Source: an uncultured Clostridia bacterium
Lineage (GTDB): Bacteria; Bacillota; Dehalobacteriia; UBA4068
DNA length: 64,000 bases
Assembly (NCBI GenBank): GCA_944393575.1
Contig: CALYAP010000030.1
Coordinates: 180 to 64,179 of the forward strand
Direction: 5' to 3'
The position numbers and the translations under genes were made by a program. Below the pieces are notes generated by a model. It had not been told where the DNA came from. It did no database searches and saw only the letters and a program-made list of their open reading frames with translations. Below, in pieces: positions 32,580 through 34,841 of the stretch (position 1 is the first letter of the stretch; every line of letters begins with the position of its first letter).

Positions 32580-34841
32580 ATGTCCCCATGTAATGGAATG
32601 CTGCTGGAAGTTGCTTCACGCATCAGGGAAATGCGGGAAATCGCCGGATACACTCCGGAATTCATGGCAGAACAAACTGAAGTGTCTTTGGAAGATTATC
32701 TCAAATACGAAACTGGTTCTAGCGATCTTCCATTCACCTTTATTCATAAATGCGCACTGGTGTTTGATGTTGATATTACCGACTTGATGTCCGGACATAG
32801 TGCTAGGTTATCATCATATACTGTTACCCGCAAAGACGGCGGACAAATCACAGCCCGTGAGCCCGGCATCATCATCAAAAATCTGGCTCCACTCTTCCGC
32901 AATAAGATAGCTGAGCCTTTCTGGGTACGCTATTCCTATGATGAGAAACAACAACATAAACCAATCCATTTAACTACCCATGCTGGGCAGGAATTTGATC
33001 TGGTGCTAAGCGGCCAGCTCAAAGTTCAGGTGGGTGACAATATTGAAGTACTGCAGGAAGGCGACTGCATCTACTACAATAGCGCCACCCCTCACGGGAT
33101 GATCGCTATCGGCGGCAAGGACTGCATCTTCTGTGCAGTAGTCCTACCTGGCAAAGATAACGAAGAAGATAACCTAGGCGAAACTATCATGGCCACCAAA
33201 AAGATGGATCATCTCATCTATGAAAACTTCATCACTGTCGAAGAAGATGACATCGGAGCTTTGCAAAAGATCAGCTTCCATGATACAGATAAGTTCAATT
33301 TTGCTTTTGATATCGTTGATGAGATGGCTAAGAAACAACCGAACAAACTGGCCATGCTTCATCTGGACCGTGATAAAAATGAACGCCGCTTCACTTTCGA
33401 GGATATCAGCAGAGCCTCTTCCCGAGCCGCTAACTACTTCAAAGCTCTGGGCATCAAAAAGGGCGACCGCGTGATGCTGGTGCTCAGACGCAACTATCAA
33501 TTCTGGATAGCTATTTTAGGCTTACATAAGCTAGGTGCTATCGCTATCCCCGCCACTGACCAGCTGCAGAAAAAGGATTTTGAATACCGCTTTGAAGCTG
33601 CTGGAGTAAGCGCTATCGTCTGCACCTCTTTTGGCCACGTCTCCGAACAAGCAGAGTTAGCAATGGAAACCTGTCCTAATGTCAAAATCAAGATCATGGC
33701 TAATGGCGCCAAAGAAGGCTGGCATGATTTCGATAATGAATATATGATGTACCGCAGCACCTTTAAGCGCACCGAAGATAGCGCTGGCGGTGACGACCCG
33801 ATGCTGATGCTATTCACATCTGGTACTACTGGTTATCCTAAAATCGCTGCCCATAGCTACAAATATCCACTGGGACACTTCATCACCGCCAAGTATTGGC
33901 ATTGCGTCGACCCAGACGGGATCCATTTCACCATCTCTGATACTGGTTGGGGTAAAGCGCTCTGGGGTAAACTCTATGGCCAATGGCTCTGCGAAGCAGC
34001 TACTTTCACTTACGATTTTGACCGTTTTGACGCCCATGACCTGCTGCCGCTTTTTGCCAAATATCATATCACTACCTTCTGCGCGCCGCCGACCATGTAC
34101 CGCTTCATGATCAAAGAAGATATTTCCAAGTATGACCTCTCCTCTATCAAGCATGCAACCACTGCTGGTGAGGCGCTCAATCCTGAGGTTTTCCACCAGT
34201 TCAAAAAGGCTACCGGACTTTCGGTAATGGAAGGCTTTGGCCAAACAGAAACAACCTTAGTCTTAGGCAATTTCATTGGCGATACTCCCAAAATCGGCTC
34301 GATGGGCAAACCCAGCCCGCTCTATGAAGTGGAGCTGCTCAATAATGAAGGCCATCCGACTAAAGAAGGCGAGGTCGGTGAAATCTGCATCCGTACTGCC
34401 GAAAAAACACCAATCGGTCTCTATCTTGGCTACTACCGGGATGAAGAAGGCACTAAAGGCTCCTGGCACGATGGGTATTATCATACCGGTGATACGGCTT
34501 GGAAAGATGAGGACGGCTACTACTGGTATGTAGGCCGTGTTGACGACCTGATCAAATCCTCTGGTTACCGCATCGGCCCCTTTGAGATCGAGAGTGTTAT
34601 CATGGAGCTGCCCTATGTGCTGGAGTGTGCAGTTTCTCCGGCCCCAGACGCAATCCGCGGCCAAGTAGTCAAAGCCAGCATCGTTCTGACCAAGGGTACG
34701 GAACCCAGCGAAAACCTCAAAAAAGAGATCCAGACCTATGTCAAACAGCGCACCGCTCCTTATAAATACCCCAGAATCGTGGTCTTCCGTGATGATTTGC
34801 CCAAAACAATCAGCGGTAAAATCATCCGCCACCAGCTCTAA
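32580..34841 (+). CDS. Fusion protein: XRE-type HTH, cupin, then medium-chain-type acyl-CoA synthetase (AMP-forming)
   Basis: The N-terminal ~190 aa carry an HTH ([22 protein letters not shown]) and a cupin ([21 protein letters not shown]...[14 protein letters not shown]). The C-terminal part carries ANL motifs [36 protein letters not shown] and [15 protein letters not shown] RBS. Confidence 0.85.
   Translation: [753 protein letters not shown]

Follow-up and report, generated by a model that had tools for sequence, protein, structure and literature searches.

What does a protein do that carries a regulator-like module at its N-terminus and a complete acyl-CoA ligase behind it, and why does one chromosome hold two such proteins? 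The question is raised by a stretch of 64,000 nucleotides (hereafter the window) from an uncultured Clostridia bacterium (GenBank assembly GCA_944393575.1, contig CALYAP010000030.1, positions 180 to 64,179 of the forward strand), in which two paralogous genes, here called A and B, encode fusions of an XRE-like helix-turn-helix (HTH) domain, a cupin domain and an adenylate-forming ligase of the ANL type. An earlier interpretation made from the letters alone, here called the sequence-only reading, had suggested that the proteins combine enzyme activity with DNA-binding or ligand-sensing roles on top of T-box control. The analysis presented here favors, with a probability of roughly 0.6, that A and B are T-box-gated ligases for 2-methylbutyrate and isobutyrate, respectively, that they feed isoleucine and valine synthesis, and that the N-terminal module is a regulatory sensor and probably not a DNA-binding repressor.

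Both open reading frames (ORFs) lie at the coordinates and on the strand that the sequence-only reading had given (Table 1), and the three-part architecture it described for the pair was recovered with Pfam in each protein. AMP-binding (PF00501) matched with E values of 2e-62 in A and 6e-65 in B, AMP-binding_C (PF13193) with 7e-21 and 1.5e-20, and Cupin_2, above its gathering score in both, with 5e-11 and 1.5e-11. The HTH was recognized as HTH_19 in A (31.0 bits against a cutoff of 30.2) and as HTH_31 in B (30.6 bits against 27). The two proteins are 80% identical overall, with 57% identity over residues 1-75, 50% over 76-125, 75% over 126-192, 52% in the linker and 90% in the ligase (241-753); the earlier estimate by eye, very similar ligases behind N-terminal parts that are half to two-thirds identical, agrees with these values. 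An insertion of 14 residues had been placed in the linker of B. B is indeed longer by 14 residues, but these are split between three at the N-terminus and about 11 gap columns near the end of the cupin and in the linker. Residues 191-201 of the linker were predicted by AlphaFold2 with a local confidence score (pLDDT) below 50, and within-class identity of the linker is 0.36.

An assembly or frameshift artifact joining two genes, named earlier as a possible explanation, was ruled out by many full-length homologues with the same architecture: the best 120 relatives listed, from at least 120 protein clusters, are all 745-770 amino acids long, 69-94% identical and of the same Pfam composition. A survey of the distribution of the fusion, also suggested earlier, was run on one genome per species and gave 587 tblastn-confirmed genome matches. 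The fusion is recurrent and occurs chiefly in Clostridia sampled from gut, rumen and digesters, among them Oscillospiraceae, Acutalibacteraceae, Christensenellales and Sporobacter. The set of loci used below consists of the window and 78 related loci (79 loci) with 115 fusion genes.

Domains, motifs and structural matches agree that the catalytic part is a medium-chain (Macs) type acyl-CoA synthetase, as had been proposed. The ligase aligned with MacsMa of Methanosarcina acetivorans (PDB 3ETC) over 516 residues (E 3e-191), and MacsMa was also the top Foldseek match of the full-length predicted model. The core motifs A3 (TSGTTGxPK), A5 (GxTE), A7 (YxTGD), A8 (GRxDDxxKxxG) and A10 (PKTxSGK; PKTISGKI) are readable in the translation, the motifs quoted in the sequence-only reading are present in the translations, and the core motif columns are invariant among 46 homologues. 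In the alignment to 3ETC, W462, K459 and C501 correspond to Trp259, Lys256 and Cys298 of MacsMa and are all invariant, so the combination that marks the Macs-type alternate acyl pocket, the Trp259 equivalent with the Lys256/Cys298 pair, is present. MacsMa prefers 2-methylbutyrate, and Trp259 is critical for its substrate binding (PMC10455477). The best NCBIfam match was MbcS (NF047394), with 440 and 444 bits and an equivalog cutoff of 850; judged by these scores, A and B are related to MbcS but are not equivalogs of it. MbcS activates 2-methylbutyrate and isobutyrate, acts poorly on isovalerate, and supplies primers for fatty-acid synthesis (PMC10026030).

A label for each paralog is carried by its leader. 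T-box control of both genes, already recognized in the sequence-only reading, was corroborated by full-length matches to Rfam family RF00230, by promoters and by terminators. In regional scans leader A scored 80.2 bits (E 1e-17) and leader B 89.3 bits (E 4e-20). Both values are below the gathering score of 93, and a scan of the whole window at that score returned RNase P and no T-box; the regional scans recovered both leaders. At several loci, orthologous leaders of both classes pass the gathering score with 93-119 bits. The window leaders align to model positions 1-219, with the Stem I kink-turn (K-turn), the specifier loop, the distal AGAGA/GGUNGGUG motifs and the T-box sequence with UGGN, and both terminators overlap the 3' strand of the antiterminator region. 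With the two leaders as an nhmmer query, 127 T-box matches were found in the window and the 78 related loci. A T-box lies directly upstream of 106 of the 115 fusion genes and about 270 nucleotides further upstream of one more; two genes are too near a contig end, and the six that lack a T-box are all Ile-type. The -35 box TTGAC[AT] stands upstream of 85 of 89 related leaders.

Specifiers were read from the cmscan alignment together with a pairing rule anchored on the K-turn, and were readable for 95 fusion genes. Fifty are ATC (Ile), 45 are GTC, GTA or GTG (Val), and nothing else occurs; in tandem copies the Ile gene comes first and the Val gene second in all 28 resolved pairs. No Phe, Trp or Leu specifier was found among the 95, and Leu specifiers (CTC/CTG) in the same loci precede a LeuA-type 2-isopropylmalate synthase. 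Aromatic acids (phenylacetate and indoleacetate, both listed as candidate substrates in the sequence-only reading) and leucine-related acids were therefore rejected as lacking support. The lack of Leu specifiers also fits the poor use of isovalerate by MbcS. T-box control by uncharged tRNA-Ile or tRNA-Val is a mark of genes whose products increase the supply of the amino acid concerned. Judged by specifiers and characterized homologues, A is most likely a 2-methylbutyrate-CoA ligase and B an isobutyrate-CoA ligase. No account of this acyl-CoA ligase being controlled by a T-box was found in the searchable literature. As a separate observation, a lysine riboswitch (L074, 7223-7396, reverse strand) is divergent from an Ile-class fusion gene.

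The 95 fusion proteins with a specifier were aligned and labeled by it. The ratio of between-class to within-class identity was 0.76 in the HTH, 0.67 over residues 76-125, 0.87 in the cupin core, 0.95 in the N-terminal and 0.99 in the C-terminal domain of the ligase. The nearest neighbor belonged to the same class for 97% of the proteins by N-terminus and for 91% by ligase, which points to an old split into two orthologous groups. Class-diagnostic residues occur at nine positions: seven within residues 11-99 (V/M11, H/Y56, K/R57, A/P75, T/I91, E/A94 and I/Y99), I/T744 and Gly/Ala458. A carries the Ile-class signature (H56, K57, A75, T91, E94, I99, G458) and B the Val-class one (Y, R, P, I, A, Y and Ala). 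The claim that the N-terminal module, and not the catalytic pocket, separates the copies stands in its first half, given seven of nine positions and ratios of 0.67-0.76 against 0.95-0.99; its second half does not, as residue 458 is diagnostic too. Every one of the 50 Ile-class proteins has Gly here, and every one of the 45 in the Val class has Ala. The residue corresponds to Gly255 of MacsMa, beside K459 and four residues before W462 in the same predicted helix, and the Gly/Ala division was also seen in all four cases taken from outside the 95 proteins (two Ile and one Val among distant fusions, and one Val split ligase). With Ala in place of Gly the pocket would lose room for roughly one methyl group, by which isobutyrate is smaller than 2-methylbutyrate, if the residue lines the pocket as the alignment suggests. 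The second copy of a distant tandem pair (L089, 4493-6769) has Glu at this position (TAWEK), a mixed N-terminal signature and no T-box of its own, and may represent a third specificity class.

In the window the two ligases are closer to each other than to their own orthologues (about 0.80), and the N-termini are class-typical. In other genomes the paralogous ligase domains share 68-82% identity, and in 23 of 25 genomes they are nearer to their orthologues than to each other. At the DNA level, identity between A and B is 64-70% in Stem I, 90-94% in the 3' half of the leader, 40-77% in the N-terminal coding part and 80-97% in the ligase (mosaic segments compared: 32420-32540 with 36945-37065, and 33250-34830 with 37810-39390). 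This mosaic fits gene conversion that spared the parts encoding amino-acid identity, and the Gly/Ala codon difference is retained through the conversion-like ligase region. The segment between the paralogs (34955-36655, reverse strand) holds a serpin gene (428 amino acids, lipoprotein-like N-terminus) and a membrane-protein ORF of 114 amino acids without a family match. Both are present in none of the 78 related loci and look like a lineage-specific insertion splitting a formerly tandem Ile-Val pair.

The N-terminal region was confirmed as HTH and cupin by its Pfam matches and by an AlphaFold2 model. Modeled alone, the module folds with a pLDDT of 92.7 as a five-helix domain followed by a beta-barrel; the helices in A span residues 3-22, 26-32, 37-45, 52-62 and 66-71, with pLDDT above 90. 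A single-sequence search of the PDB with the N-terminus found nothing significant. A profile search gave 1Y9Q as the best match (E 3e-12) and HppE end to end (E 4e-11), and Foldseek with the module model placed HppE first (E 2e-14, template modeling (TM) score 0.53-0.55 over about 190 aligned columns, about 20% identity), then 1Y9Q (E 6e-14, TM 0.39-0.43), then Psf4, HEPD and MPnS. A set of 57 sequences, both fused and stand-alone and 30-66% identical, shows no variation at R14, R19, H134, E138, G145, G161, D162 and H172, and R84 is invariant along with the triad and D162 over the same range. H134, E138 and H172 align with the 2-His-1-Glu ligands of HppE (GHxGxEF...PH), a correspondence that points to putative metal binding through these residues; in 1Y9Q the first His is replaced by Leu.

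Nearest to the module in sequence are truncated fragments of the same fusion. More distant ones, found in an exhaustive representative search, are stand-alone proteins of 183-190 amino acids, 30-46% identical end to end and with an acidic HTH. For each of six sampled, a Macs-type ligase gene comes next on the same strand, at -4 to +28 bp, and these split ligases start aligning at residues 213-239 of A. One split pair has a Val T-box and Ala at 458; another has a divergent cassette of a P-loop protein, a ferredoxin and a 2-oxoacid:ferredoxin oxidoreductase (OFOR). The occurrence of module and ligase both split and fused argues for a functional, probably physical, partnership. A further split pair (L086, 5001-7232; also L087 and L088) lies in a Bacteroidota-like arginine operon with ArgR, an argC-like gene, a P5CR-like gene, OTCase and a Por_Secre_tail neighbor, which extends the partnership beyond the branched-chain amino acids.

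The module shares its domain order with known transcription factors, and A and B could be bifunctional in the manner of BirA, with an HTH that represses their own promoter or that of the neighboring oxidoreductase operon, a cupin that senses a ligand, and the whole acting as a layer above the T-box. HTH_19, HTH_31 and HTH_3 pass or approach their Pfam cutoffs, the closest profile match in the PDB is the regulator 1Y9Q, and conservation extends to R14, R19, Y40 and E44. XRE-cupin proteins typically act locally, regulating or repressing the enzyme genes beside their own (PMC7901475; PMC12724383). The charge of the HTH argues against this account: over aligned segments it is -8/-9 in the window copies and -4 in the HppE alpha-domain, as opposed to +2 in 1Y9Q and +1 in ImmR, which are DNA binders, and the family-wide means are -6.4 for net charge, 4.5 for pI and -2.5 for helix 3. 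Helix 3 in the window copies is rich in Glu and Asp (for example VSVGEYQECE), and the class-diagnostic residues lie outside it. No palindromic operator is conserved in 89 non-redundant promoter regions beyond A/T tracts; the elements recurrent in them are the -35 box, the A/T tracts and pairing with the T-box K-turn only. The promoters of units A and B and of the OFOR operon, put forward earlier as shared targets, have nothing in common beyond a -10 box and A/T-rich strings. The stand-alone relatives are acidic as well, and their genes run in the same direction as the ligase gene just behind them, not divergently from it. The fold is equally near that of HppE-type enzymes, whose HTH-like alpha-domain does not bind DNA and mediates oligomerization. 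Of the roles that the sequence-only reading had allowed for, DNA binding in the manner of a conventional repressor is thus not supported, given the acidic HTH and the lack of a conserved palindrome; the module is probably not a DNA-binding repressor, and the bifunctional account as a whole is unlikely. It draws some support from one locus without a T-box (L077, from a metagenome-assembled genome labeled Verrucomicrobiota), where the HTH has a net charge of -1, helix 3 (VSVRRYAAVE) contains two Arg, and four GGTTGCGCAACC-like palindromes with 23-nucleotide spacing (220-325) stand upstream of the fusion gene, which starts at about 487. In the window, an 8-3-8 palindrome, CTTTTTTGTTGCAAAAAAG, occurs at 42960-42990 (reverse strand), about 30 nucleotides upstream of the -35 box of the oxidoreductase promoter and just after a terminator-like hairpin; it was not found at the ligase promoters.

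The resemblance to HppE could alternatively mean that the module is itself an enzyme, a mononuclear-metal cupin that converts the free acid, its adenylate or its CoA ester, perhaps by isomerization or epimerization. Such a role would account for the invariant triad, for HppE, Psf4, HEPD and MPnS among the top structural matches, for weak EutQ-like/Cupin_3 matches in 27 of 57 module members and for the tight coupling to the ligase in fused and split forms. The similarity to HppE is limited, however, to the TM scores and identity given above, the proposed pathway requires no further reaction, and Clostridia of gut, rumen and digester are unlikely hosts for HppE-type chemistry, which depends on O2 or H2O2. 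The residues that bind the phosphonate substrate in HppE, which we take to be Lys23, Arg97, Tyr102, Tyr103 and Tyr105, do not appear to be kept as a set: in the alignment Lys23 and Arg97 have no counterpart, and the position of Tyr105 is Tyr in the Val class and Ile in the Ile class. This position is residue 99, which with diagnostic residues 91 and 94 lies on a beta-hairpin aligned with the Tyr102-Tyr105 strand. A regulator of the same fold binds its ligand in this pocket, since the cupin of 1Y9Q holds D-methionine (PMC7901475), a precedent for amino-acid binding in such pockets. A catalytic module is accordingly improbable, and ligand sensing is plausible. Sites of the 2-His-1-carboxylate type are classic binders of alpha-keto acids. 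Conserved residues and alignments together suggest that the module would sense a class-specific ligand in a metal-dependent manner and act on the ligase protein itself.

The genes next to B bear on the direction of the pathway. An operon convergent with B encodes a 2-ketoisovalerate ferredoxin oxidoreductase (VOR) behind a P-loop protein, and its alpha subunit passes the NCBIfam cutoff for VorB (524 bits against 399). In 24 of 44 long loci a VOR cassette is found no more than 8 kb from the fusion genes, in many cases just after the Val copy, a LeuA gene with a Leu T-box occurs in 14 of the 44, and an Aminotran_1_2 gene immediately follows the distant tandem pair in L089. The VOR of the window is predicted to be a reductive carboxylase acting on acyl-CoAs. 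At the level of physiology, it has been known for decades that rumen and gut anaerobes make isoleucine and valine by carboxylating 2-methylbutyrate and isobutyrate reductively; in the searchable literature, no gene-level assignment of the activating ligases was found. The biosynthetic reading is coherent, as the ligases run towards the thioester and the T-box reports a shortage of charged tRNA. The P-loop protein resembles CbiA/MinD-like and STAND proteins only faintly and matches no NCBIfam model. In 36 of 78 loci the VOR cassette comes with a homologue of about 33% identity, and the protein may have an accessory or maturation role.

A different purpose, namely primers for fatty acids, detoxification or catabolism, with a VOR serving oxidative fermentation of branched-chain amino acids, is very improbable. 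It is in keeping with the role of MbcS, the best family match, in Staphylococcus aureus (PMC10026030), and with a window VOR operon that has no T-box; VOR enzymes also work oxidatively in amino-acid fermenters. Against it, an Ile or Val T-box is a signature of amino-acid supply genes, the specifier tracks the putative pocket residue one to one, the neighbors include LeuA under a Leu T-box and an aminotransferase, and a thioester-forming ligase would make no sense downstream of an oxidative VOR, which already yields acyl-CoA. That the module is a scaffold only, dimerizing the ligase or docking the VOR without sensing a ligand, would suit the flexible, weakly conserved linker, the oligomerizing alpha-domain of HppE and the fused and split forms, but is hardly credible given an invariant triad with R84 and D162 at 30-66% identity, hard to explain without a metal or a ligand, and class-specific residues strongly conserved within classes.

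Several loci carry related arrangements for leucine. Operons with a Leu-specifier T-box and a LeuA-like protein of 457-476 amino acids were seen in L013, L016, L091/L092 and about 15 other loci. In L011 (12998-17175) such an operon encodes a LeuA-like protein and then an ORF of 835 amino acids, apparently an N-terminally extended ANL enzyme under amino-acid T-box control. L091 encodes a fusion of 827 amino acids that joins AP_endonuc_2 (a TIM-barrel) to AMP-binding and is 23-24% identical to the ligase of A; it might serve a leucine or isovalerate branch.

According to the T-box-gated sensor-ligase reading favored here, A would convert exogenous 2-methylbutyrate, and B isobutyrate, to the CoA thioester. 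The VorB-type oxidoreductase, with reduced ferredoxin and CO2, would turn these acyl-CoAs into 2-keto-3-methylvalerate and 2-ketoisovalerate, transamination of the 2-oxoacids would give isoleucine and valine, and LeuA would extend ketoisovalerate towards leucine. Each ligase would be gated separately, with uncharged tRNA-Ile (AUC) or tRNA-Val (GUC) blocking termination in its leader. Gly458 or Ala beside the acyl-pocket Trp would tune the pocket by one methyl group, C5 versus C4. The XRE-like and cupin module would be dedicated to the ligase, either within the same chain or as the product of the gene just before it, and would bind a metal through His134, Glu138 and His172 and sense the class-specific end-product amino acid or its 2-oxoacid. 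Presumably by allosteric action, it would thereby give fast protein-level control of the ATP-consuming first step.

A number of points weigh against this reading. The substrates are assigned from specifiers and from homologues of about 50-60% identity, both proteins miss the equivalog cutoff of MbcS (440 bits against 850), and the placement of residues 458, 91, 94 and 99 in pockets is indirect, coming from alignments. No T-box was found upstream of the VOR operon of the window, and the VOR cassette is absent from the 8-kb flanks in 20 of 44 long loci. The stronger divergence of the classes at the N-terminus could derive in part from repeated gene conversion of the ligase and not from functional specialization. 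An acidic HTH is compatible with DNA binding, and R14 and R19 are invariant. By analogy with XRE-cupin proteins that regulate adjacent enzyme genes, the split pairs could be operons of a regulator and its target, and the L077 member, to judge by its helix 3, may bind DNA.

A bolder statement, which we hold only tentatively and would not yet wager on, is that the module is an unrecognized class of regulatory partner of adenylate-forming ligases, a metal-dependent sensor of end products (Ile or Val, or their 2-oxoacids) that switches the ligase off post-translationally, as a fusion or as a separate subunit, and has been widely recruited, including into Bacteroidota arginine operons, and that, with the specifiers, it marks the long-sought genes of the rumen and gut branched-acid route to isoleucine and valine.

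Coordinates of the features discussed are collected in Table 1. Elsewhere in the window, a bacterial RNase P class A RNA was found at 30062-30411 on the reverse strand (297.8 bits); it also adjoins the fusion locus in L001, which is syntenic with the window. A large serine recombinase (Resolvase, Recombinase and Zn_ribbon_recom) at 53233-54753 on the forward strand suggests a mobile or integrated element nearby. For an ORF of 83 amino acids at 43204-43455 on the forward strand, the sole match is to the middle domain of fatty acid kinase subunit A (FakA-like_M, E 8e-20); the ORF may be part of a broken gene or encode this domain on its own. The remaining genes are the ordinary chromosomal complement of a spore-forming Firmicute.

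Table 1. Positions in the window of the two fusion genes, their control elements and the neighboring VOR operon
Feature	Position	Strand	Evidence
Unit A promoter, TTGACA-17-TAAAAT with TG extension	32226-32254	+	Consensus scan, 11/12 matches
T-box leader A; Ile specifier AUC at 32365-32367, AGUGGUACCGCGGG at 32485	32276-32520	+	Rfam RF00230
Leader A intrinsic terminator; 12-bp stem (listed 32510-32537) and T-run	32510-32547	+	Terminator scan
Gene A, HTH-cupin-ligase fusion, Ile class, 753 aa	32580-34841	+	ORF, Pfam, 3ETC match (E 3e-191), class signature
A, XRE-like five-helix domain, aa 8-72, net charge -8	32601-32795	+	Pfam HTH_19, AlphaFold2 helices
A, cupin barrel, aa 89-190	32844-33149	+	Pfam Cupin_2, fold match to HppE
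A, cupin triad codons H134, E138, H172	32979-32981, 32991-32993, 33093-33095	+	
A, linker, aa 191-240, low confidence, weakly conserved	33150-33299	+	AlphaFold2, alignment
A, ANL ligase; AMP-binding aa 247-619, AMP-binding_C aa 669-747	33318-34820	+	Pfam
A, codon 458 GGT (Gly), class-diagnostic	33951-33953	+	Alignment
Unit B promoter, TTGACA-17-TATAAT	36760-36788	+	Consensus scan, 12/12 matches
T-box leader B; Val specifier GUC at 36899-36901, AGUGGUACCGCGGG at 37010	36808-37045	+	Rfam RF00230
Leader B intrinsic terminator; 12-bp stem (listed 37035-37061) and T-run	37035-37071	+	Terminator scan
Gene B, HTH-cupin-ligase fusion, Val class, 767 aa	37096-39399	+	ORF, Pfam, class signature
B, codon 472 GCC (Ala), class-diagnostic	38509-38511	+	Alignment
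VOR gamma	39542-40090	-	Pfam POR
VOR beta	40093-40827	-	Pfam TPP_enzyme_C
VOR alpha	40830-41906	-	Pfam POR_N and PFOR_II; NCBIfam VorB
VOR delta, ferredoxin	41920-42126	-	Pfam Fer4
P-loop protein, 248 aa; first gene of operon 39542-42892	42146-42892	-	Pfam

The window pair is best described as T-box-gated branched-acid ligases of the Macs/MbcS kind within a conserved Ile/Val gene set, together with a widespread uncharacterized partner module. The T-box specifiers serve as a built-in functional label that ties each ligase paralog to one amino acid across about 100 genes, and with VOR, LeuA and the aminotransferase the two ligases form a testable gene set for the branched-acid route, which underlies cross-feeding of branched-chain fatty acids in gut and rumen and isoacid supplementation in ruminants. 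A single Gly/Ala position would offer a simple specificity switch for enzyme engineering. The association of an HTH-like metallo-cupin module with the ligase, fused or split, suggests an uncharacterized regulation of ANL enzymes, and warns that an "XRE-cupin" annotation does not always denote a transcription factor.

Each part of the system has a known counterpart from which it departs. The ligase shares its fold and the Trp259, Lys256 and Cys298 positions with MacsMa, and the Ile class also shares Gly255, where the Val class has Ala; MacsMa differs in being archaeal, in having no HTH-cupin in the crystallized chain and in having no known T-box control. The selectivity of S. aureus MbcS for 2-methylbutyrate and isobutyrate mirrors the restriction to Ile and Val specifiers, but MbcS is a single enzyme for both acids that feeds fatty-acid synthesis, whereas here two paralogs carry the module and riboswitches. 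The XRE-cupin regulators PauR, PsdR, ErfA, DbuR, PuuR and 1Y9Q have the same domain order and size (about 185 amino acids), adjacent enzyme genes and pockets that bind metabolites. They differ in being stand-alone proteins that sit as dimers on promoter palindromes with a neutral or basic HTH, where the window module is acidic and has no conserved operator, and 1Y9Q differs further by its Leu in place of the first metal-ligand His. HppE, Psf4, HEPD and MPnS, Fe(II) cupins of phosphonate metabolism, have the same two-domain fold, an aligned triad and an acidic alpha-domain; low identity, the apparently incomplete phosphonate-binding set and the anaerobic hosts set the window module apart, and no HppE-type enzyme fused to an ANL ligase was found in this analysis. 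The leaders share with other T-box riboswitches (RF00230) the K-turn, the specifier loop, the AGAGA and distal motifs, UGGUACCGCG and the terminator, although T-boxes usually control genes for aminoacyl-tRNA synthetases, biosynthesis or transporters and here control an acyl-CoA ligase. BirA likewise joins an HTH to an adenylate-forming enzyme, but binds DNA, which the window proteins are unlikely to do. The nearest functional analogy may be the end-product inhibition of early enzymes of branched-chain amino-acid synthesis through the ACT domains of IlvA and IlvN and the regulatory domain of LeuA. There, as would be the case here, a regulatory domain sits on the committing, energy-consuming enzyme, with an ACT fold in place of the cupin through which A and B would be controlled by feedback.

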